From: Candidatus Krumholzibacteriota bacterium
Lineage (GTDB): Bacteria > Krumholzibacteriota > Krumholzibacteriia > JAJRXK01
Assembly: GCA_963727455.1 (NCBI GenBank)
Contig: CAVSGG010000007.1
Coordinates: 115,478 to 179,477, forward strand
Direction: 5' to 3'
DNA length: 64,000 bases
Shown: in pieces, positions 23,710-58,893 of the stretch
Layout of the letters: each line of letters begins with the position of its first letter
Numbering within the stretch: position 1 is the stretch's first letter
Position numbers and translations under genes: made by a program
Notes under the pieces: generated by a model
Databases searched by the model: none
Seen by the model: only the letters and a program-made list of their open reading frames with translations
What the model was told of the DNA's origin: nothing

Positions 23710-23748
23710 GACGGAGCCCCCGCTGTCGGTGGGGGCTCCGTCCGTTTT
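23710..23748 (+). terminator. Rho-independent terminator after hup
   Basis: GACGGAGCCCCCGC...GTGGGGGCTCCGTC stem followed by cgtttt. Confidence 0.75.
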
Positions 23749-23909
23749 GGAACCACAGCTCCTTCTCGCGCATTGAACCAGGGGGCGCCTGTCTCCTCAC
23801 TGGAAGGGCGATTTCAGGCCAAGATTGCGGCATCCACGCAACTCTTGGTATTATAGTGCTTCGTCTGCCGGAAACCGGGCCAATTCGTCGATCCGTTTGG
23901 AGGTCGAAG

Positions 23910-25268
23910 ATGCATCGAGTCACCCTGCGAGCAACGAGTTTCCTCGTTGCACTCGCCGCGGCTCTCGGACTGTGGACGCGCATGCCCGCGTCGCAGGCCG
24001 AGGATCTGGTCGATCTGACCATTACTTTCGAAGGGGCGGTCCATGGTGAAATCGCCCCTTGTGGGTGAAAACACAAGCCGCTAGGTGGGTTGGCCCGGAG
24101 GGCCGCCATATTTCAGGACATCGCCAAGAACCACAAGAACGTGCTCCATCTCGACGCGGGGAACATGTACGGCCGCCGTACGGACGCCGCACGGGCCCAG
24201 ACCGAGTTCCTACTGCAGCACGTGGCCAAGCTGGATTATCCGGTGCTCCCGGTGGGACAGTGGGATTTGAACTACGGTCTCGACTTTCTGAAGGAGCAGG
24301 CCGCCAAATACAATTTCCACTACATCTCGGCCAACTTGAAGGGTGGGGAGAATGGAAAGCTCCTCTTCGATCCCTATGCGGTGGTGAAGAGAGGCGGACT
24401 GCGAATCGGCGTCATCTCGGTGATCGGGCCGAGCTACGTCATCACCACCATGTCGGCCAAGGTGGACAAGTTCGTAATCGACTCTCCTCGCGACGCTCTC
24501 GAGAAGTATCTACCCGAGCTGCGGAAGAAGAGCGATCTCATCGTCTTGCTCTCCGGGGCGACCACCCGGGACACGCGCGAACTGTTGACCGATCTGGGCA
24601 CTGACTCCGGGATCGACATCTGTGTAGAGGGTGCCGATCTGCGCCAATACCGTCGTCTGAATCGGGTGGGAGACGTCTATCTCGTGTCCGCCAATCCGCA
24701 GGGCAAGTACCTGGGTCAGCTCGACCTGCAGGTCACTCCCAAAGGGGACATCCAGGACGCGGTTCTGACCCTGCACGAACTGGGCAAGCAGGCGCCGGAG
24801 ATCGCTGAAATCCAGACCGAAGTCGACAAGTTCCTCAAGGACAACGAGAAGTTGGCCAAGCATTCGCAGCTGAAGCCCAGTCCCGACAAGGGTCTCAAGG
24901 ACGAGAAGTACTTGGGGACCACGCGCTGCAGCAACTGCCACAAGGAAATCTTCACCAAGTACCAGGAAACCGCGCACGCCAAGGCCTGGCAGACCCTGGT
25001 GGCGAAGGGACAGACCAGCAATCCCGATTGCGTGGGCTGTCACGTAACGGGCTGGGACTACTATAACGGCTTCGATCCGACGGTATCGACCAACGGGCAG
25101 AACATTCTTTTCAACGTGCAGTGCGAGGCCTGCCACGGTTACGGAACCATGCATGCGCGCGATGGAGAGTGGGCCGCACAGGCCAAGAAGTCCTGTACCC
25201 ACTGTCATACTCCTGAGTTCGATCCCGATTTTGACTACGACACCTATTGGGCCCGTATCGCCCACTAG
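23910..25268 (+). CDS. UshA-like (seleno)protein fused to tetraheme c-type cytochrome; in-frame UGA at 24066-24068 read as Sec
   Basis: GGAGG RBS, signal peptide, HGEIAPCG-UGA-KHKPLGGLARR continuous in frame across two ORF-track entries; four CxxCH (CSNCH, CVGCH, CEACH, CTHCH). Confidence 0.85.
24084..24108 (+). promoter_or_regulatory. Candidate bacterial SECIS hairpin
   Basis: GGCCC-GGA-GGGCC stem-loop (24092-24104); G-containing loop 28 nt after the UGA. Confidence 0.55.
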
Positions 25269-25338: not shown

Positions 25339-26109
25339 TTGAAGATGTTGCGCTGGCTCCTCTTGGCTCTCTTCGTCTTGGTCGGTCCCGTCAGCTCACG
25401 GGCACAGGAGGTCTTTTCTTGGTGGCATCGCGGGCTGCTCGAATTCGATCTCACCGCGGGTTCGTGGGCGGAGTTTTCGCGCACCGAGACATCCGAGGGT
25501 CAACAGACGAAAGAGAAACTGCGTTGCGAGGTCCTCGCGCGCACCGAGCAAGGAGAGCACTGGATCAAACTGAGATTTCTGGATGAAGAGGAGTCTTACG
25601 TTCTACTCGTAGCCCCTTTGGATTCCTTGCGGCAGGGAGATCTGCTGCAGGGGCTGCATCGCGTGTTCAAACTCTTGCCCGCCGGCGCGGTCGAGGAGGA
25701 AGACCTGGAACGGGTGCGCAACAACCGCCTCTTGAGCCGCCATTTCAAGGACCTCTTCGAGAACCCCAGCGTGGAACGTGAGGCTTTGCCCGACACCACC
25801 ATCGGCGAACAGACGATTTCCCGCGAGCGAGTGCGGCTCGACGAAGTGCGGGAGGTGAAGGTGAAGATGGGACGCAGCGACATGATCTATCGCAACGAGG
25901 CGGTGGCGGTCGCCCAGATTTCGCCCGCCGTTCCGATCTTCGGCCTCCTGCGCTCGAAGGTGAACACTTCGCTCGCTCCCGCGAATCCGCAAAGGAACAG
26001 CCCTCCGCCGCTTCTGACCGAGGAGGAGCTGGTGTGTGTGGCCTTCGGAAGAAAGTCCACGCCCAGCGGCCTTCCCCCCGAGGTCCAAGAACTCCTGCAT
26101 TCTCGCTAG
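25339..26109 (+). CDS. Hypothetical secreted protein
   Basis: Signal-peptide-like N-terminus (MKMLRWLLLALFVLVGPVSSRA); fills the gap between known genes. Confidence 0.65.
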   Translation: MKMLRWLLLALFVLVGPVSSRAQEVFSWWHRGLLEFDLTAGSWAEFSRTETSEGQQTKEKLRCEVLARTEQGEHWIKLRFLDEEESYVLLVAPLDSLRQGDLLQGLHRVFKLLPAGAVEEEDLERVRNNRLLSRHFKDLFENPSVEREALPDTTIGEQTISRERVRLDEVREVKVKMGRSDMIYRNEAVAVAQISPAVPIFGLLRSKVNTSLAPANPQRNSPPPLLTEEELVCVAFGRKSTPSGLPPEVQELLHSR

Positions 26110-27226: not shown

Positions 27227-28624
27227 ATGAATGTTCCTAAGGACGCTTTCATTCCCCCGGTCCTCGAAGACGTCACCGAGGCCATCGGGAACACCCCCCT
27301 GGTGCGGCTGCGCAAGATGCCCGACCCCAAGGGCGCGCGGGTGTACGCGAAGATGGAAATGCTCAATCCCGGCGGAAGCGTGAAAGACCGCATCGGGGCC
27401 TCGATGCTGGACGCAGCAGAGGAGCAGGGTCTTCTGCGTCCCGGCGGTACGGTCGTCGAATGTACCAGCGGCAACACAGGGATGGGTCTGGCGCTCTCCT
27501 GCGCGGTGCGCGGTTATCGCCTCATCTGTACCATGCCCGACAAGATGAGCAAGGAGAAGATCAGCCTGCTGCGCGCGATGGGCGCCGAAGTCATCGTCAC
27601 CCCCAGTAACGTGGCTCCCGACCATCCCGAAAGCTATTACTCCATCGCCCGAAGCATCGCCGAGAGTACGGACAACTGTGTGTGGACCAATCAGTATTTC
27701 AACGACGCGAATCCTCGTGCCCACTACAGCAGCACGGGGCCGGAGCTGTGGGCGCAGACCGAGGGCAAGATCTCCGCGTTCGTGGCCGGGATGGGCACCT
27801 GCGGCACGATCAGTGGCACGGGACGATACCTCAAGGAACAGAACCCGCAGGTACGCATCGTCGGTGTCGATCCCGAGGGGAGCATTCTCAAGCATTGGTT
27901 CGACACGGGCGAGACCGGCGAGGCGCAGCCCTACAAGGTCGAGGGGATCGGCGAGGACATCGTCCCCAGCGTCTTCTATCGCGATGCGGTGGATGAAGTG
28001 CGTAGTGTGAACGACGAAACCTCGTTTCTCATCACCCGGCGCTTGGTCAAGGAGGAAGGGATCTTCGCCGGAGGTTCCTGCGGTTCGGCGGTCGCAATCG
28101 CCCTGGACGTGGCGCGCGAGATGAAGCCCGATCAGATGGTGGTCGTCCTTCTGCCCGATTCGGGTTCGAAGTATGTGTCGAAGATTTTCAACGACGACTG
28201 GATGCGGGAGAACCGCTTCCTCTCACCTTCCCTGGCCACGGTGAGCGACGTACTGCACCGCGGGGGGAGACCGCTGAAGACCCTTCTCACCGTCGAGTGG
28301 GATGCCACCGTGCGAGATGCCATCGATCTAATGCGGCTGAACGAAGTGAGTCAACTGCCCGTCATGAGGCATGGCGAGCCGGTGGGGCGCGTTACCGACA
28401 GCCGGCTCATGGCCGCGGTCCTGGACGATCCGTCGTGCATGGACCAAGGCCTCGGCAAGCTGCAAGAGCCGCCGCTACTGCGTGTGGAAGGCGCGCGACG
28501 CATGAGCGAAATCCTCGCCACTCTCAGCGGGAAGGACGCCGCGGTTCTGGTGGAAGAACACGGCCACGTGGCGGGGATCATCACCCGCTACGATCTCATC
28601 GACTTCGTCCAGGAGGGACACTAG
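27227..28624 (+). CDS. cbs: Cystathionine beta-synthase with C-terminal CBS domains
   Basis: IGNTPLV, NPGGSVKDR, TSGNTG, GTCGT, YKVEGIGED, SKIFNDDWM, C-terminal CBS pair. Confidence 0.93.
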   Translation: MNVPKDAFIPPVLEDVTEAIGNTPLVRLRKMPDPKGARVYAKMEMLNPGGSVKDRIGASMLDAAEEQGLLRPGGTVVECTSGNTGMGLALSCAVRGYRLICTMPDKMSKEKISLLRAMGAEVIVTPSNVAPDHPESYYSIARSIAESTDNCVWTNQYFNDANPRAHYSSTGPELWAQTEGKISAFVAGMGTCGTISGTGRYLKEQNPQVRIVGVDPEGSILKHWFDTGETGEAQPYKVEGIGEDIVPSVFYRDAVDEVRSVNDETSFLITRRLVKEEGIFAGGSCGSAVAIALDVAREMKPDQMVVVLLPDSGSKYVSKIFNDDWMRENRFLSPSLATVSDVLHRGGRPLKTLLTVEWDATVRDAIDLMRLNEVSQLPVMRHGEPVGRVTDSRLMAAVLDDPSCMDQGLGKLQEPPLLRVEGARRMSEILATLSGKDAAVLVEEHGHVAGIITRYDLIDFVQEGH

Positions 28625-28627
28625 AAC

Positions 28628-29767
28628 ATGGGCTTCTCCACCAAAGCGATCCACGCGGGACAAAAGCCGGAACCGGTCACCGGAGCGGTGATGACCCCCG
28701 TGTTTCAGACGTCCACCTACGCGCAGGACGGAATCGGAGAACACCGCGGCTACGAGTACGCGCGCACGCAGAATCCCACGCGCGAGGCCCTGGAGGGCTG
28801 CATTGCCGCCCTGGAGGGCGCGAGTCACGGAGTGGCTTTCGGCAGCGGAACCGCCGCGATCCACGCCATCCTCCAGACCCTGAACGGCGGCGACGAGATC
28901 ATCTGTACCTCCAACGTCTATGGGGGCACCTACCGGCTCTTCGAGATGGTGCTTCGGCGATTTGGTCAGCGCTTTCACTTTGTCGACACCAGCGATCTCG
29001 CCGCGGTGGAAGAAGCTCTCAGCGAGAAGACGAAGTTGCTGTTCGTAGAGACGCCGACCAATCCGGTCTTGACGCTCAGCGACATCAAAGCGTGCGCCGA
29101 GCTGGCCCACGACAAGGGCGCGAAGCTGGCCGTCGACAACACCTTCATGAGCCCCTATTTCCAAAACCCCTTGGCCCTGGGCGCCGACGTCTGTGTGCAC
29201 TCTACCACCAAGTATCTCAACGGACACAGCGACATGGTTGGCGGCATCGTGCTCACCAATGACGACGATCTCTTCGCGAGCTTGAAATTTCTGCAGAATG
29301 CCGCGGGCGCGGTACCCGGTCCTTGGGATTGTTGGCTCGCGCTGCGTGGAGTGAAGACTCTGGCGGTGCGCATGCGGCAACACGATGCTAACGCGCGGCA
29401 GCTCGCGGCGTGGCTCGCGGAGCGGAAGGACGTGAAGAAAATTTACTATCCCGGCCTGGTTGCGCATCCCGGGCACGCGCTCGCGCAACGGCAAATGCGG
29501 GGTTTCGGGGGCATGATCTCCTTCGATCTGGGCTCGTTCGCTGCGGCGCAGAAAGTCGTAAAAGCGGTGCAAATCTTCACTCTGGCGGAGAGTCTCGGTG
29601 GGGTGGAGAGCCTGATCTCACATCCAGCAATGATGACGCACGGCACCGTACCCAAAGAAATTCGCGAAGAATTGGGAATCACCGATGGCCTCGTGCGTAT
29701 CAGCGTGGGCATCGAGGACGTAGAGGATCTGCAGAACGATTTGGAGCAAGCGTTGGATTCGATTTGA
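28628..29767 (+). CDS. Cystathionine gamma-lyase/synthase
   Basis: YEYARTQNPTR, ETPTNP, DNTF, HSTTKYLNGHSD, AESLGGVESL. Confidence 0.94.
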   Translation: MGFSTKAIHAGQKPEPVTGAVMTPVFQTSTYAQDGIGEHRGYEYARTQNPTREALEGCIAALEGASHGVAFGSGTAAIHAILQTLNGGDEIICTSNVYGGTYRLFEMVLRRFGQRFHFVDTSDLAAVEEALSEKTKLLFVETPTNPVLTLSDIKACAELAHDKGAKLAVDNTFMSPYFQNPLALGADVCVHSTTKYLNGHSDMVGGIVLTNDDDLFASLKFLQNAAGAVPGPWDCWLALRGVKTLAVRMRQHDANARQLAAWLAERKDVKKIYYPGLVAHPGHALAQRQMRGFGGMISFDLGSFAAAQKVVKAVQIFTLAESLGGVESLISHPAMMTHGTVPKEIREELGITDGLVRISVGIEDVEDLQNDLEQALDSI

Positions 29768-29912
29768 TGCGCATGGGAATTTGCGACTTGCTTGACGCTC
29801 GCATTCCCAATTCGTATGATCGCGCCACCGTTGATACGCTTCTTAGATGGGCAGCTTCCTGAGTAACGGTGTGGTCGATGTGAATGATGGTATTTGGTCT
29901 CAGGGAGGAAAA

Positions 29913-30098
29913 ATGACCAAGTCCGAAGACTCGTCCCTGGTGAAGGAAAAACATTTCGTGCGTTACGATCAACTCATCGAAAAAGCGGAACGAGAGGGAC
30001 GGTTGAACGGTTCCTACCGTTGCCTGGTGTGCGGAATGCGATACAACCTGAAAGAGGAAGCAGAGGACTGCTGCAAGGTCGTCGCGTCCCGAAGGTAA
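29913..30098 (+). CDS. Small Cys-rich zinc-finger-like protein (61 aa)
   Basis: GGAGG RBS; YRCLVCGMRY...EAEDCC. Confidence 0.65.
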   Translation: MTKSEDSSLVKEKHFVRYDQLIEKAEREGRLNGSYRCLVCGMRYNLKEEAEDCCKVVASRR

Positions 30099-30127
30099 GC
30101 GAAACCCCACGGGAAAGATTATTCACC

Positions 30128-30511
30128 ATGCCACAGCAGGGCACTGCTATGCGCCAGTACTGTTCGGTTTGCAAGGATCACCTCGAGATGACGGTGGTCA
30201 GCGATACCAGCGAAGACGGAGTCATCTGGCTGAAGTGTCCGCGCTGCAAGGGCATCCTTCCCCACATGGAGGAGACGGGGGAAGAAAGCGCTCAGCCTGC
30301 CCCGGAAGATCCCCTCGAGGAAATCGACATCAGCAAGGCGGTGCCCTACGATTCCACGCGGGTGTATGAGGTGGGGGATATCGTCCACCATCGCAGTTGG
30401 AACGACTATGGTGTGGTGTTGGAGATCGTCGATCTTCCCGGAAACCGGCGCACGGCCCGGATTCGTTTCAGCGAGCACGGCGAGATCCAACTCATCATGG
30501 GTGAGCGCTGA
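30128..30511 (+). CDS. Zinc-ribbon plus Tudor/SH3-like (PcrA/UvrD C-terminal-like) protein
   Basis: CSVC...CPRC; YEVGDIVHHRSWNDYGVV...ARIRF. Confidence 0.65.
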   Translation: MPQQGTAMRQYCSVCKDHLEMTVVSDTSEDGVIWLKCPRCKGILPHMEETGEESAQPAPEDPLEEIDISKAVPYDSTRVYEVGDIVHHRSWNDYGVVLEIVDLPGNRRTARIRFSEHGEIQLIMGER

Positions 30512-42497: not shown

Positions 42498-42516
42498 ATT
42501 GATTGTCATTTTCAAT
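42498..42516. promoter_or_regulatory. Fur-box-like operator upstream of tandem fur
   Basis: ATTGA-TTGTCATTT-TCAAT 19-bp imperfect palindrome; 16/19 identical to site upstream of feoA. Confidence 0.75.
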
Positions 42517-42561
42517 TCGCGAGGGAACCCTCTGATTTTCCCCTTCGGGGGAGGCTTGGTC

Positions 42562-43554
42562 ATGAACGATACAAAGTCCTCTCCCGCGCGGAATTCCTCC
42601 ACACTGATCGACGAGTTCCGCGCCTACCTCTTGCGCGAGAACCTGAAGAGTACGCGTCAACGCGAAGCCATCGTGAATGTCTTTGCGCGCATGGAGGGTC
42701 ACGCCAGCGTCGAGGACTTGCTGAAGGCGGTGAGCCGGACGGAGAAGGGCATCGGCTACGCCACGGTGTACCGCACGCTCAAGCTCCTCGTCGATTCGGG
42801 TCTGGCGAGCGTGCGGCACTTCGGGGATGGCGAGAGCCGCTACGAAGTTCGCAGCCCGGAGCACCACGACCACTTGATCTGTACCGAATGTGGTCTGGTC
42901 ATCGAATTCAAATTACCCGAGGTCGAGAAGCTGCAGGAGGAGGTGGCGAAGAGGGCCGGGTTTCACCTGGAGAGCCACTGCCACGAACTCTACGGGATCT
43001 GCCAAGAAGTCGCGGCTGGCCAACCGTGCCGCTTTAACCCGGAGGCGGGAAAGGACACGATTGGTGGACGCCCCTTCAGCGATCAGGGTTCCGTTCCCGC
43101 TTCTTTCGAACGCCGTTCGGCCGAGAGCCTTCCCAGCGCCTTCCGCAAGTACCTCGCGCGCGAGCAACTGAAATCCACCCGGCAGCGTGACCTCATCGCG
43201 GAGGTCTTCTCCAAGCTGGAGGGCCACGTCAGTGTCGACGACTTGCTCGCGGAAGTGAAACGCCGGGATCCGCAGATTGGCTATGCCACGGTCTACCGTA
43301 CTCTGAAACTCCTGGTCGATTCCGGGCTCGCCGCCAGCCGGAGCTTCGAGGGCGGGCGCACGCGCTATGAGACTCGCGGCCTGGAGCATCACGATCACAT
43401 GATCTGTCAAAAAACCGGCAAGATCATCGAATTCCGCAACGATGAGATCGAACAGCTGCAGGAGAACCTTGCCAAGAGCTTGGGCTTCAAACTTCTCCGG
43501 CATCGCCACGAGCTCTACGGCTATCTCGAAGCTGCGGCCCCCCCGGAAAACTGA
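42562..43554 (+). CDS. fur: Tandem double-domain Fur family regulator
   Basis: Two full Fur units, each with LKSTRQR, GYATVYRTLKLL, HHDH.IC and HELYG. Confidence 0.92.
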   Translation: MNDTKSSPARNSSTLIDEFRAYLLRENLKSTRQREAIVNVFARMEGHASVEDLLKAVSRTEKGIGYATVYRTLKLLVDSGLASVRHFGDGESRYEVRSPEHHDHLICTECGLVIEFKLPEVEKLQEEVAKRAGFHLESHCHELYGICQEVAAGQPCRFNPEAGKDTIGGRPFSDQGSVPASFERRSAESLPSAFRKYLAREQLKSTRQRDLIAEVFSKLEGHVSVDDLLAEVKRRDPQIGYATVYRTLKLLVDSGLAASRSFEGGRTRYETRGLEHHDHMICQKTGKIIEFRNDEIEQLQENLAKSLGFKLLRHRHELYGYLEAAAPPEN

Positions 43555-54768: not shown

Positions 54769-54905
54769 GTTCGGCTCCCGAGATAGAGGCGCCAAGGGTC
54801 TCTCCAGCATGGTTCGGACGGGAAGAGGGCGGTTCCAATGGGAGCCGCCCTAAGCCTATCCGCTCGGAAGTGGAGAGAGTTCGATCAATCGTTTATATTC
54901 GCTGC

Positions 54906-55532
54906 ATGTCTTCCATTGCCAAGATCATGGTCTCCTTGCGCGTCAACGGAGCCGTCCACGAGCTAGCAATCCGCCCGGCAGCCACCCTTCTCGACGTGCT
55001 ACGCGAGGAGCTCCACCTCACGGGCAGCCACCGCGGCTGCGATATGGGGACGTGCGGCTGCTGCACGGTTCTCGTCGACGACAAGCCCCTTCTCTCCTGC
55101 CTCACCCTGGCCGCCGAGGCCGAGGGTAAGGAAATCACCACCATCGAAGGCCTGCACGAGGCGGAGAAACTCCATCCGGTGCAGGAGGCCTTCCTGAGCA
55201 GCGGCGGGAGTCAATGCGGCTTTTGCACGCCCGGATTCATCATGACCTCCGTGGCGCTCCTGCGCGAACACCCCGATCCCAGCGAGCAGGAAATTCGCGA
55301 GGCGATCAGCGGCAACATGTGCCGTTGTACCGGCTATGTGAAGATCGTCGATGCGGTCCAGAAGGCCGCAGCCGAGCTACGGGGCACGCGCGGAAGCGTC
55401 GACGTGCCGGTGGGAACCGGAATCCGCGGCCGGCGCAACGACGACGGAGGCGATTCGGTGCTCGGAGCGTTCAAGGGCAGAAGGCCGCAGCGGCCCGCCA
55501 AGAAATCCGACAGCGGGGAGGTGAGCAAGTGA
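54906..55532 (+). CDS. (2Fe-2S)-binding subunit of xanthine-oxidase-family enzyme (HcrC/CoxS-like)
   Basis: [28 protein letters not shown]. Confidence 0.95.
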
Positions 55533-57856
55533 GGAAGAGGAAAGCTTACAACATCATCGGCCAGCCCATTCCCCTGGTGGATGGCGCCAAGAAGGTGGCC
55601 GGGGAAGGCGAGTACGCCGAGGACATTCGTCTGCCGGGCATGCTTTACGCGCGCATTCTACACAGCCCTCACTCCCACGCGCGCATCCTCTCCATCTCCA
55701 CCGAAAAAGCGGCCGCGATCCCCGGGGTACGCGCCGTCGTCACCGGAAAAGAGGCGCCAGCCCAGTTCGGAGTCCTGCCCATCACCAAGGATGAGACCGC
55801 GATGGCGACAGATCGCGCGCGCTTCGTCGGCGACTACGTGGCGGCAGTGGCCGCCGACGACGAAGAGACCGCCGATCGAGCGGTTTCGGCGATCACGGTG
55901 GAGTACGAAGAACTGAAGTCCGTTAAGAAGATGACGGACGCGTTGGGGGATGAGGTCGAAGCTCTGCACCGTAAGACGGTGGAGGGCACCAACATCATGA
56001 AGCAGGTCGAGCAGGACTTCGGCGACGTGGACAAAGCCTTCGAGGCCGCCGATGCCCTGGTGGAGCAGCGCTACGAGTTTCCTGGAGTGAATCACGCCTT
56101 CACCGAACCCCATGCAGTGTGCGCACATTTTGAGGCCGACGGACGGCTCACCCTGTGGTCGCCCACCCAGGTGCCGCATTACGTGCATCGCGCGTTGGCC
56201 GAGGTGATGGATCTACCCATGCACCAAATCCGCGTGTTCCGCACCATGATCGGTGGCGGCTTCGGCGGGAAGAGCGATCCGTTCCCGCACGAAATGATCG
56301 TCTGTCTGCTTGCCCGCAAGACCGGTCGTCCCGTCAAGCTGGTAATGACCCGTGAGGAGACCTTCCTCGTCAACCACGGACGGCATCCCACCCAGACCAC
56401 GATCAAGATGTCGGCCAAGAAGGAGGACGGAGTCACCGCTCTGCAGCTCGATGCACTCATCGACGGCGGCGCTTTCTCCAGTTTCGGCGTGGTTACTACC
56501 TACTACAACGGTGTGCTGAGCCAAGGTCCCTACCGCATTCCCAACTTTCGCTACCGCGGCCGGCGTGTGTATTCCAATCGTCCGCCCAGCGGGGCGATGC
56601 GCGGACACGGCAGCGTCAATACCCGCTATCTCATCGAGACCACGGTGGATGAACTGGCCGAGCAGCTGGGAGAGGATCCCTGCGAGTTTCGTCTGCGCAG
56701 TTTTCTGCCCGAGAATACCCTCACCACGAACCACTTCCGCATCACCAGCAACGGGATTCGCGAGGGGCTCGCCGAAGCCATGTTGCGCAGCGAGTGGCGC
56801 GAGCGTTGGGGGAAGTTGCCCTTCGGTCACGGACTGGGGGTGGGCTGCGGCTTCTACATCAGCGGGAGCAACTTGCCCATTCACTGGACGCGTTTCCCGC
56901 ACTGCACGGTTCACCTGAAGGTCGACGGCGACGGCGGGGTTACCATCCACAACATGGCGGCCGAAATCGGACAGGGCTCGGACACGGTCATGGCGCAGGT
57001 GGTGGCCGAGGAGTTGGGTCTGCCGATCTCGATGATGCGGGTGCGCAGCCAGGACACCGATACCGCTCCACTGGATCTGGGAAGCTACAGCAGCCGCGTG
57101 ACCTTCATGCTGGGCAATGCCACTCGCGATGCGGCGCGGATCATCACGGAGAAACTCTCGGCTGCGGCGTGTCGCCTCGCAGGCCGGCCGCGCGCGCAGT
57201 GGGAGTTCACAGGCGGCAAGCTCATCGACCTGATCGAGCCCGAGATCGAGGTTTCGTATTTCGACGCCTTGGAGGAAGCGATGGCCGAAGGTGGCGCTCT
57301 CATCGCGCGGGGTTGGTACCAATCGCCCAAACTCGGCGGCAACTTCAAGGGCGCGGCGGCGGGCCTCTCGCCGAGCTATTCCTTCGGCGCCTTCATCGCC
57401 GAAGTGAAAGTAGATCCGGAAACGGGCTTCGTGAAAGTGGTGAAGGTGTGGGCCGCGCACGACTGCGGATTCGCACTCAATCCACTGGCGGTGGCGGGGC
57501 AGATCGAAGGCAGCGTTCACATGGGCCTGGGGCAGACCCTGATGGAGGAGATGCGTTACAAGAAGGACAACCTGCTCATGAACGCCAATTTCCTCGATTA
57601 CAAGGTTCCCACCAGCGTCGATACCCCCGAGATCGAAGCCATCATCATCGAGAGCAACGACCCCGAGGGTCCCTACGGGGCCAAGGAGTGCGGCGAGGGC
57701 GCACTCTCGCCGGTCATACCCGCCGTCGGCAACGCTATCTACGATGCGGTCGGCATTCGTCTGCGTAAGCTGCCGTTCACTCCCGAGCGCGTTTTGAGCG
57801 CCCTGGAAGCAAAGGCCAAGCGTTCCAGGAGCAAGAACGGCGTCGCCTCTCTTTAG
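55529..57856 (+). CDS. Molybdopterin-binding subunit, 4-hydroxybenzoyl-CoA reductase alpha (HcrA)-like
   Basis: GTG start overlapping upstream stop; GGGFGGK, GAMRGHG, EIGQG, SSRVT, GQIEG, GAKECGEG. Confidence 0.85.
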   Translation: MRKRKAYNIIGQPIPLVDGAKKVAGEGEYAEDIRLPGMLYARILHSPHSHARILSISTEKAAAIPGVRAVVTGKEAPAQFGVLPITKDETAMATDRARFVGDYVAAVAADDEETADRAVSAITVEYEELKSVKKMTDALGDEVEALHRKTVEGTNIMKQVEQDFGDVDKAFEAADALVEQRYEFPGVNHAFTEPHAVCAHFEADGRLTLWSPTQVPHYVHRALAEVMDLPMHQIRVFRTMIGGGFGGKSDPFPHEMIVCLLARKTGRPVKLVMTREETFLVNHGRHPTQTTIKMSAKKEDGVTALQLDALIDGGAFSSFGVVTTYYNGVLSQGPYRIPNFRYRGRRVYSNRPPSGAMRGHGSVNTRYLIETTVDELAEQLGEDPCEFRLRSFLPENTLTTNHFRITSNGIREGLAEAMLRSEWRERWGKLPFGHGLGVGCGFYISGSNLPIHWTRFPHCTVHLKVDGDGGVTIHNMAAEIGQGSDTVMAQVVAEELGLPISMMRVRSQDTDTAPLDLGSYSSRVTFMLGNATRDAARIITEKLSAAACRLAGRPRAQWEFTGGKLIDLIEPEIEVSYFDALEEAMAEGGALIARGWYQSPKLGGNFKGAAAGLSPSYSFGAFIAEVKVDPETGFVKVVKVWAAHDCGFALNPLAVAGQIEGSVHMGLGQTLMEEMRYKKDNLLMNANFLDYKVPTSVDTPEIEAIIIESNDPEGPYGAKECGEGALSPVIPAVGNAIYDAVGIRLRKLPFTPERVLSALEAKAKRSRSKNGVASL

Positions 57857-57879
57857 TAGCCAAGAGGAATCCCCAAGTC

Positions 57880-58893
57880 ATGACCATGTACGTTCCGAGC
57901 TTCCGGCTGCACCGGCCCAACTCTCTGAAGGAAGCGCTCGCTCTGACTCGTGAGCTGAAGGATTTCGATTTCCTCGGTGGCGGCACCGACCTTCTGTGCA
58001 ACTACAAGAACAAACTGAATGCCAAGGACGAAGTCATCAGTCTCACCCACATCGAAGAGCTGAAGGAGATCTCTCCCACCCGTATCGGCGGCGGGGTGAC
58101 GCTCAACGACTTACTCGACGACGCGGCCATCGCGGCCACCCATCCCGTGATCTCTCAGACCGTGCGCAAGATCGCCAGTCCGCTCATCCGGCAGACGGCG
58201 ACGGTGGGAGGCAACCTGCTGGTGGACACACGCTGCTATTGGTTCAATCAGTCCCCGGAATTTCGCAACGCCCTGGGCTCGTGTCTCAAGGCGGAATCGG
58301 ACGAGTGCCGCGTGGTACCTAACCCCTCGATCTGTTACGCCACCTACAGCGGCGATCTGGGTCCGGTGTTGTGGGCGCTGGATGCCCGCGTGCATCTGAT
58401 GGGACCAGACGGCGATCGCCGCGTCTCGATGCAGGAGTTCTTTTTGCCCGCGGGCTCTTCCAAGAACACCATGGATGAGGGCGCTCACCTGGATGGTATC
58501 GGTCGCAATACCAAGAAGCCGGACGAGATCATCGTGGCGGTCGAGATTCCCGTGGAGAGTCAGGAACTCCAAGCCGGCTACATGAAGCTGCGCGCCCGCG
58601 ACGCGCTCGACTTTCCCGATGCGGGGGTGGCGATTGCGCTGCGCCGCGGCAAGAAAGGCGCCATCGAATCACTGCGCGTAGTGGTGGGTGCAGTGGCGCC
58701 GACGCCGTTGGAGTACTCCGAAACCGCAAAGGCCCTCGTGGGCACGGTGCCCGACGAGGATGCCCTGGCCGCCTTCGGCGAACGGCTCTCCGCTGCGATC
58801 ACTCCCTACAAGAACACCTGGTTCGGTCCCAAGTACCGGCGCAAGATCGTCGGTGTCTACGGCAAGCGCATTCTGCGCGAGCTGCTGTTCTAG
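57880..58893 (+). CDS. FAD-binding subunit with [4Fe-4S] insertion (HcrB-like)
   Basis: GGGTDL, ATVGGNL, insert RCYWFNQS...CLK....C.......C, KLRARDALDFP. Confidence 0.88.
   Translation: MTMYVPSFRLHRPNSLKEALALTRELKDFDFLGGGTDLLCNYKNKLNAKDEVISLTHIEELKEISPTRIGGGVTLNDLLDDAAIAATHPVISQTVRKIASPLIRQTATVGGNLLVDTRCYWFNQSPEFRNALGSCLKAESDECRVVPNPSICYATYSGDLGPVLWALDARVHLMGPDGDRRVSMQEFFLPAGSSKNTMDEGAHLDGIGRNTKKPDEIIVAVEIPVESQELQAGYMKLRARDALDFPDAGVAIALRRGKKGAIESLRVVVGAVAPTPLEYSETAKALVGTVPDEDALAAFGERLSAAITPYKNTWFGPKYRRKIVGVYGKRILRELLF

Follow-up and report, generated by a model that had tools for sequence, protein, structure and literature searches.

A predicted selenoprotein of the UshA-like family NF041198 in Candidatus Krumholzibacteriota that joins an emptied nucleotidase fold to a c554-like tetraheme domain

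We analyzed a stretch of 64,000 nucleotides from a Candidatus Krumholzibacteriota bacterium (hereafter the window) and identified a gene for an UshA-like (seleno)protein, the features of which are listed in Table 1. With the standard bacterial code (table 11) the region is split into two open reading frames, 23856-24068 and 24090-25268, which lie in a common frame. Translation of 23910-25268 with TGA read as selenocysteine (Sec, U) gave one open frame that ends at a TAG stop, as the initial annotation had proposed, and places U53 in the context HGEIAPCG-U-KHKPLGGLARR. Of 72 sequences, the window among them, 27 have the TGnTAnnnT pattern of the -10-like element upstream of the gene, and one has it inside the coding sequence. 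No call was made at this element in a strict sigma-70 scan; it is likely the gene's own promoter.

Table 1. Coordinates of features at the UshA-like (seleno)protein locus (positions in the window).
Feature	Position	Strand	Remarks
12-bp perfect hairpin, 3' of upstream HU gene	23710..23742	+	likely terminator of the HU gene
Extended -10-like element TGGTATTAT	23846..23854	+	pattern TGnTAnnnT
Shine-Dalgarno GGAGGT	23899..23904	+	5 nt 5' of ATG 23910
UshA-like (seleno)protein, NF041198 family	23910..25268	+	452 aa, one TGA read through
Probable signal peptide, Sec-type, residues 1-30	23910..23999	+	from inspection of the sequence; low pLDDT in residues 1-24
5'-nucleotidase-type metallophosphoesterase fold and linker helix, residues 31-318	24000..24863	+	
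Cys51-Gly52-Sec53	24060..24068	+	TGA 24066-24068
Bacterial SECIS hairpin	24091..24105	+	within L-A-R-R-A codons
c554-like tetraheme domain, residues 328-452	24891..25265	+	PF13435
Heme 2 motif CVGCH	25029..25043	+	predicted to have no distal His, from His count and c554/OcwA mapping
10-bp perfect hairpin, 3' of stop codon	25295..25320	+	possible terminator; no U-tail called

The genes surrounding the selenoprotein gene in the window are housekeeping genes (accD, folC, ROK, lptD, HU, DEDD exonuclease, CBS and cystathionine lyase). In Krumholzibacteriota-like genomes, the gene is part of a conserved housekeeping block; of 81 sequences, 50 have lptD, 40 HU and 31 accD near the gene, and cystathionine lyase and CBS were found there in 15 and 11, respectively. 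Such a block suggests that the gene is inherited vertically, but offers no clue to the substrate. The nearest relatives (94% and 85%) carry the label Candidatus Krumholzibacteriota.

To compare the site of the TGA among relatives, the best 120 of 195 protein matches and a set of genomic loci were used. Cys was found at position 53 in all 43 of these 120 database proteins that span the site. The remaining 77 begin 3' of position 53, so that truncation is frequent, in agreement with the earlier expectation that standard annotation would truncate the gene. A scan of GTDB confirmed at least 501 relatives among at least 605 stretches, and the best 80 were kept as loci. As the scan pattern was a heme motif, these 80 loci are selected for the heme-fused form. 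The site codon was TGA in 64 and Cys in 14 of the best 80 of the at least 501 loci, and two loci were cut by contig ends. Position 53 was Cys or Sec in all 77 read-through loci, so that the alignment of homologs at the UGA, suggested in the initial annotation as a check, returned Cys in the proteins and Cys or Sec in the loci. Position 53, G59, G60 and R63 were invariant in 78 of 78 rows, and the spacer was five residues long in all 64 TGA loci. In seven of the 64 TGA loci, a clade of six (starred in the tree) and L077, Ala or Val stands in place of Cys51. Because Cys51 can be replaced while position 53 is invariant, Sec and not the CxU pair is the essential residue. The CxU unit described earlier is therefore present as CGU in the window protein, but it is not an invariant of the family. 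The AGU and VGU forms without the first Cys (L041, L042, L051, L059, L065, L071 and L077) retain both the TGA and the SECIS hairpin. The tree used here is a quick tree from which L010 and the two cut loci were left out. In L010 (8166-9369), a TGA form, the frame shifts some 60 codons downstream of the site, which is probably an assembly error. A close Cys-form relative, L030, lies on a contig labelled Bathyarchaeota and is nested among bacterial sequences, indicating either misbinning or transfer.

The G-loop hairpin noted downstream of the TGA in the initial annotation was confirmed. It has a 6-bp stem (24091-96/24100-05) and a GGA loop (24097-99), starts 28 nt 3' of the TGA, and the region 24080-24115 folds with -13.4 kcal/mol. 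These values agree with the bacterial SECIS consensus of a 3-9 nt loop with an early G, a stem of 4-16 bp, a spacing of 16-37 nt and a minimum free energy of at most -7.5 (PMC13188914). The stability of the hairpin was not in excess of that of shuffled sequences (z -0.65 to +0.71), and an Rfam gathering scan of the window gave no matches. Of the 64 TGA loci, 55 contain the core GCCCGG[A/C]GGG[C/T], compared to none of the ten tested Cys loci (Fisher p 1.3e-7, with rows that are related); four further Cys loci, in which Leu takes the place of the second Arg and which the pattern does not match, stood outside this comparison. The codon for the second Arg was AGG in 31 of the 64 TGA loci, compared to 56 of 783 Arg codons in the window genes. 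The pair formed by two third-codon positions was kept in 61 of the 64 TGA loci by way of GC, TG, CG, GT and AT. The Cys forms L030 and L035, which fall within starred Sec clades in the quick tree, have both lost the core. The hairpin thus stands above chance, as it is conserved in TGA-bearing relatives and lost in Cys-bearing ones.

The exchange between TGA and Cys in relatives and a SECIS hairpin that tracks the TGA support the Sec recoding claimed earlier, and the window gene almost certainly encodes a selenoprotein. It is hardly credible that the TGA instead represents a genuine stop codon, an error of sequencing or a genome-wide reassignment. This explanation could draw on the searches for Sec machinery, as ARAGORN found no tRNA-Sec in the 64-kb window or in 60 of the 80 loci, and a scan with SelA, SelB and SelD motifs found none over 1.16 Mb of sequence; the ordinary stability of the hairpin compared to shuffles also fits it. 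Set against it are the recurrence of the same TGA in separate genomes, the Cys codon in the other loci that span the site, and the behaviour of the hairpin. A global code change is contradicted by the window genes themselves, as TGA is the stop of 12 of the 23 annotated genes, in which TGG is used 122 times.

With 305.3 bits, the window protein exceeds the cut-off (275) of NCBIfam NF041198, named 'UshA-like (seleno)protein', and is a member of this family; its residues 18-282 align to model positions 6-274. The C-terminal 162 amino acids alone align to positions 364-518 of 519 (E 4.3e-35), which indicates that the curated model already includes the cytochrome. The score with NF049981, UshA-like (seleno)protein family 2, was 48 bits and remained below the cut-off of 140. 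NF041198 (UshA_like_PCGU; the COG0737 CxU family) shares the PCGU..PLGGLxR motif with the dataset of 2008. Compared to the family, the window protein has a shorter linker and lacks the remnant metal ligands that about half of the family keeps. According to the accessible part of the GOS paper of Zhang and Gladyshev, in which 76 CxU UshA-like selenoproteins were reported, the family has been a predicted selenoprotein since 2008 and an exception to the thiol-redox folds (PMC2398784). The supplement contains 74 occurrences of PCGU with the same motif (PMC2398784), in line with the statement in the initial annotation that UshA-like selenoproteins with CGU followed by GGxARR are known. The family is also present in a table in the accessible parts of reviews from 2022 and 2026, the latter of which gives a RefSeq representative. 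The description of the fusion as hidden therefore does not hold, since the curated model covers both domains and the 2026 review lists that representative: the window gene is a further member of an already catalogued family. The value for annotation lies in rescuing a gene that is usually cut short in databases.

The accessible parts of the 2008 paper and of the 2022 and 2026 reviews make no mention of the heme domain. In the literature searched, no functional study of the NF041198 family was found, nor any work joining selenocysteine, multiheme and nucleotidase. The term 'UshA' is absent from the main text of PMC13326102, PMC5029168 and PMC12013277, and 'usha' from the accessible part of the bioRxiv version of the 2023 Haft paper. 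The family is large: with E up to 1e-30, a family search gave 6036 representatives, true nucleotidases among them, and the Atlas clusters of the family are spread over many phyla. In a plasmid search, none of the 26 matches covers the window protein.

An AlphaFold model of the window protein (pLDDT 90.4, pTM 0.85) was used for fold comparison. The N-domain resembles 3ivd (VIA Z 33.1, rmsd 2.6, 287 aligned), UshA (1ush; Z 32.3, rmsd 2.6, 287 aligned) and SoxB (Z 30.9). The N-terminal fold and the linker helix are like those of UshA/CD73 and SoxB, whereas the catalytic His and the dimetal ligands are lost and a cytochrome stands in place of the C-terminal substrate domain. In the alignment to the 5'-nucleotidase of T. 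thermophilus (2z1a), NDTH is changed to GAVH, DAGD to DAGN, GNHE to GQWD and SH to SG, which confirms the degenerate metallophosphoesterase motifs described earlier. The catalytic His was present in 0 of the 307 rows that have a residue there, and of the seven metal ligands of the dimetal site (anchored on the 2z1a alignment) the window protein keeps only His45. The N-domain is, by these computations, a 5'-nucleotidase fold without the hydrolase residues, and the earlier claim that nucleotidase chemistry has been lost stands. It is very improbable that the protein is a residual hydrolase (a nucleotidase or a SoxB-like thiosulfohydrolase) with an attached cytochrome. The resemblance of the fold to 5'-nucleotidases and SoxB would favour such an activity, but the catalytic His and all but one of the metal ligands are gone, the substrate-binding C-domain is replaced, and the SoxB model TIGR04486 scored 75.9 bits with a cut-off of 550.

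Four positions of the N-domain, D85, E/N117, H216 and H242, covary strongly in a coevolution analysis. The distribution of this remnant set is bimodal, as all four residues are present in 126 of 289 rows and none in 68 of 289. The fold is dead, as the initial annotation had called it, in the window protein, which has N, Q, G and A at these positions, but a D-E/N-H-H remnant metal site is kept in the 126 relatives. The covariation and the complete tetrad in the 126 rows, among them five of five AGU forms, favour the possibility that the Sec or Cys is a metal ligand and not a nucleophile, either completing a remnant mononuclear site in the old active centre or holding a soft metal beside heme 2, with metal or oxyanion redox or sensing as function. 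In MccA, two Cys residues hold Cu, which offers an analogy. Since all four ligands are missing from the window protein, which nevertheless keeps CGU, and likewise from a further group of relatives, we consider this role rather improbable.

The four CxxCH motifs in the C-terminus reported earlier start at residues 340, 374, 405 and 429, and the domain matches Pfam PF13435 (56.7 bits, gathering threshold 20.8). The model of the heme domain resembles cytochrome c554 (1bvb) with a VIA Z of 11.3 and rmsd 2.6 over 120 aligned residues, in which model residues 1-125 lie on residues 1-179 of 1bvb. The tetraheme fold and the order of motifs are like those of c554 of Nitrosomonas europaea and of hemes 1-4 of OcwA (6i5b), whereas the window domain is fused to a Sec domain and is about 55 residues shorter, its 125 residues being aligned with 179 of c554. 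The score with the Nitrosomonas c554 model, CycA NF043010, was 43.5 bits, far from its cut-off of 400. The C-domain is, as computed from profile and fold, a c554-type tetraheme unit at the place of the nucleotidase substrate domain.

Among rows filtered for four CxxCH motifs, His356 and His415 were present in 314 of 314 and His452 in 289 of 303. Outside the motifs, every remaining His, Met, Cys or Lys position of the heme domain was conserved at 50% or less. With three conserved distal His residues for four hemes, one heme would be open. By a residue-by-residue mapping to the ligands of c554, heme 2 of the window protein is probably open. The accessible text of the OcwA study places the open active site of both c554 and OcwA at heme 2, and the open hemes of OcwA reduce nitrite and hydroxylamine (bioRxiv 10.1101/641308).

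The arrangement of the two domains appears to be fixed, as suggested by the pTM of the model and by Atlas models of relatives, which superimpose over 402-427 residues that span both domains. In a mean-field coevolution analysis of 314 rows (Meff 273), only two inter-domain pairs, V212-T362 and L258-Y334, exceeded shuffled noise, and neither of them touches the Sec loop or heme 2. The pairs Q264-P390, K266-T380 and D119-F388 had been considered as contacts to the loop following heme 2 and were rejected, as their z of 4-5.5 lay within the shuffled noise, which had maxima of 5.4 and 6.1. Heme-less forms, which end after the linker helix, make up 15 of the best 120 of 195 protein matches, and in two loci (TGA at L043:6871 and L045:6952) the heme-fused gene has, directly upstream, a CGU paralogue that is heme-less but shares the SECIS core, resulting in tandem selenoprotein genes. 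The domain can thus exist without fused hemes. The earlier description of a site wired to four hemes is correct as to the four CxxCH motifs; the wiring itself is an inference, with no coevolution link between site and heme and with heme-less forms in existence.

The heme-less forms, c554 as the closest solved fold and the chemistry of the open hemes of OcwA would be in keeping with domains that work largely independently, with a small N/O ligand (NO, hydroxylamine or nitrite) bound by heme 2 as in c554 and OcwA, and with thiol-redox or regulatory functions of the Sec loop as a site of its own. We regard this as decidedly unlikely, as the invariant Sec/Cys sits on the cleft loop, the fusion recurs in many phyla, and the distal His-His pair of OcwA has no conserved counterpart in the NF041198 rows.

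With a confidence a little short of even, we propose that the window protein is a periplasmic Sec/heme oxidoreductase for S-S substrates, comparable to MccSep on an unrelated fold. The periplasmic redox protein envisaged in the initial annotation is supported; the protein would be exported and its hemes attached in the periplasm. Sec53 would be located on the loop after the DxH motif, lining the old active-site cleft, and the free distal position of heme 2 would face this cleft, so that Sec53 may ligate or adjoin heme 2. Sec53 could then attack an S-S or Se-O bond, with polysulfide, persulfide or a protein disulfide as candidate substrate, while Cys51 would be an accessory resolving or ligating residue and the invariant Arg63 and near-invariant Arg64 may grip an anionic substrate. 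The three bis-His hemes would form an electron path to or from an outside partner. Redox genes and domains that recur with relatives, described below, also favour this reading, and the housekeeping surroundings of the window gene, the heme-less forms and the coevolution result speak against it.

The model for this arrangement is MccSep/ExtKL of Geobacter sulfurreducens (NF040886), in which, as described in the accessible part of the paper, a Sec beside heme 2, whose ligands are His and Cys, reduces polysulfide (PMC13510729). The window protein is similar to it in size and would likewise be a periplasmic multiheme c-type cytochrome. In MccSep/ExtKL one Sec is brought towards heme 2 from a separate domain (PMC13510729), and the His count of the window protein is compatible with a Sec/Cys on the distal side of heme 2. 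MccSep/ExtKL has five hemes and an Ig-like C-terminal Sec domain (PMC13510729), whereas the window protein has four c554-type hemes and an N-terminal metallophosphoesterase Sec domain. NF040886 was not among the 20 families matched in a family profile comparison at E up to 1, MccSep was absent from the fold-search matches, which does not argue against a similarity, and UshA is not mentioned in the accessible text of the MccSep paper (PMC13510729). More tentatively, and with distinctly less than even confidence, NF041198 could represent a second type of Sec-heme enzyme that is widespread and has evolved independently. An emptied nucleotidase fold would bring Sec or Cys directly onto, or next to, heme 2 as the open heme in a c554 module, and a His/Sec-ligated c-type heme would couple periplasmic S-S chemistry (of polysulfide or DsbA-type protein disulfides) to a cytochrome wire, in phyla that are largely uncultured. 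The value of the analysis lies in the mechanism, as the count of three His for four hemes, a Sec that is invariant while the Cys can be lost, and the MccSep structure of 2026 together give a specific model that can be tested. Relatives with a natural Cys, P0011 (52% identical) among them, allow expression that does not depend on Sec machinery.

A different partner is suggested by genes and domains associated with relatives of the window protein. The protein might be a soluble, heme-based partner of periplasmic DsbA/thioredoxin proteins, DsbB- or DsbD-like, in which the CGU or CGC exchanges disulfides with the CxxC of DsbA and the hemes sink or supply electrons. A CGC shuttle disulfide is present in Erv2p and provides an analogy. 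A DsbA-like gene lies directly downstream in seven of the 80 best loci, all of one Cys-type clade and in one case together with a TlpA/AhpC-like gene, and DsbA-like domains are fused in P0123, P0126, P0247, P0264 and P0268, with an intact CPHC in P0126 and CIHC in P0128. DsbA-like matches were found in four, and DUF1573 fusions in two, of eight long representatives that had been picked by length from 150. In a separate search, however, PF01323 was detected in only one of 22 family-like long proteins, which makes the DsbA link a minority signal. Furthermore, a CPYG motif, which contains a single Cys, is found in three of the four fusions, two of the DSBA scores are below the Pfam cut-off, a DsbA-like neighbour is absent in the clade of the window protein, and the AGU/VGU forms are unable to form an internal selenenylsulfide. 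We consider partnership with DsbA unlikely.

Several other arrangements were observed among relatives. The Cys clade with the downstream DsbA-like CxxC protein consists of L056, L061, L068, L069, L072, L075 and L080 and belongs to Nitrospirota/Thermodesulfobacteriota. In proteins P0123, P0126, P0128 and P0268, of about 1200 amino acids, two CxC UshA-like domains flank the DsbA-like region and one tetraheme domain is present. The Cys forms P0269-P0289 are 915-962 amino acids long and have an N-terminal extension of about 450 amino acids without Pfam label. A DsbA domain was considered for the extension of these forms of about 930 amino acids and was rejected. L067 carries a pair of paralogues (L067:3938 and L067:8139), of which one is a Cys form and the other a TGA form of 948 amino acids that has a long extension at its C-terminus. 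In L066 (5959-10269) and L076 (5897-10385), the genes for DUF1573, rhodanese-like and MauE/DoxX proteins, the UshA-like protein and a Fer4_5 (NapH/MauN-like) 4Fe-4S ferredoxin follow each other, and this gene order is a candidate for a complete membrane-to-periplasm redox module.

In the window, a pair of cystathionine beta-synthase-like and cystathionine gamma-lyase/synthase-like genes (27230-29767) lies 2 kb downstream of the selenoprotein gene, which could be a link to sulfide or persulfide or mere synteny. Three conserved neighbours (25339-26109, 29847-30098 and 30119-30511) have no Pfam or NCBIfam match and belong to clusters found in 32, 20 and 40 of the 81 sequences, respectively; the product of the last one has a zinc-ribbon-like start (CxxC...CxxC). 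Near feoB, on the opposite strand, a gene (42499-43554) encodes a single protein with two tandem Fur domains. Further downstream, an operon of the xanthine dehydrogenase family (54870-58893), with best matches to subunits of 4-hydroxybenzoyl-CoA reductase that score below cut-off, hints at an anaerobic or facultative host.
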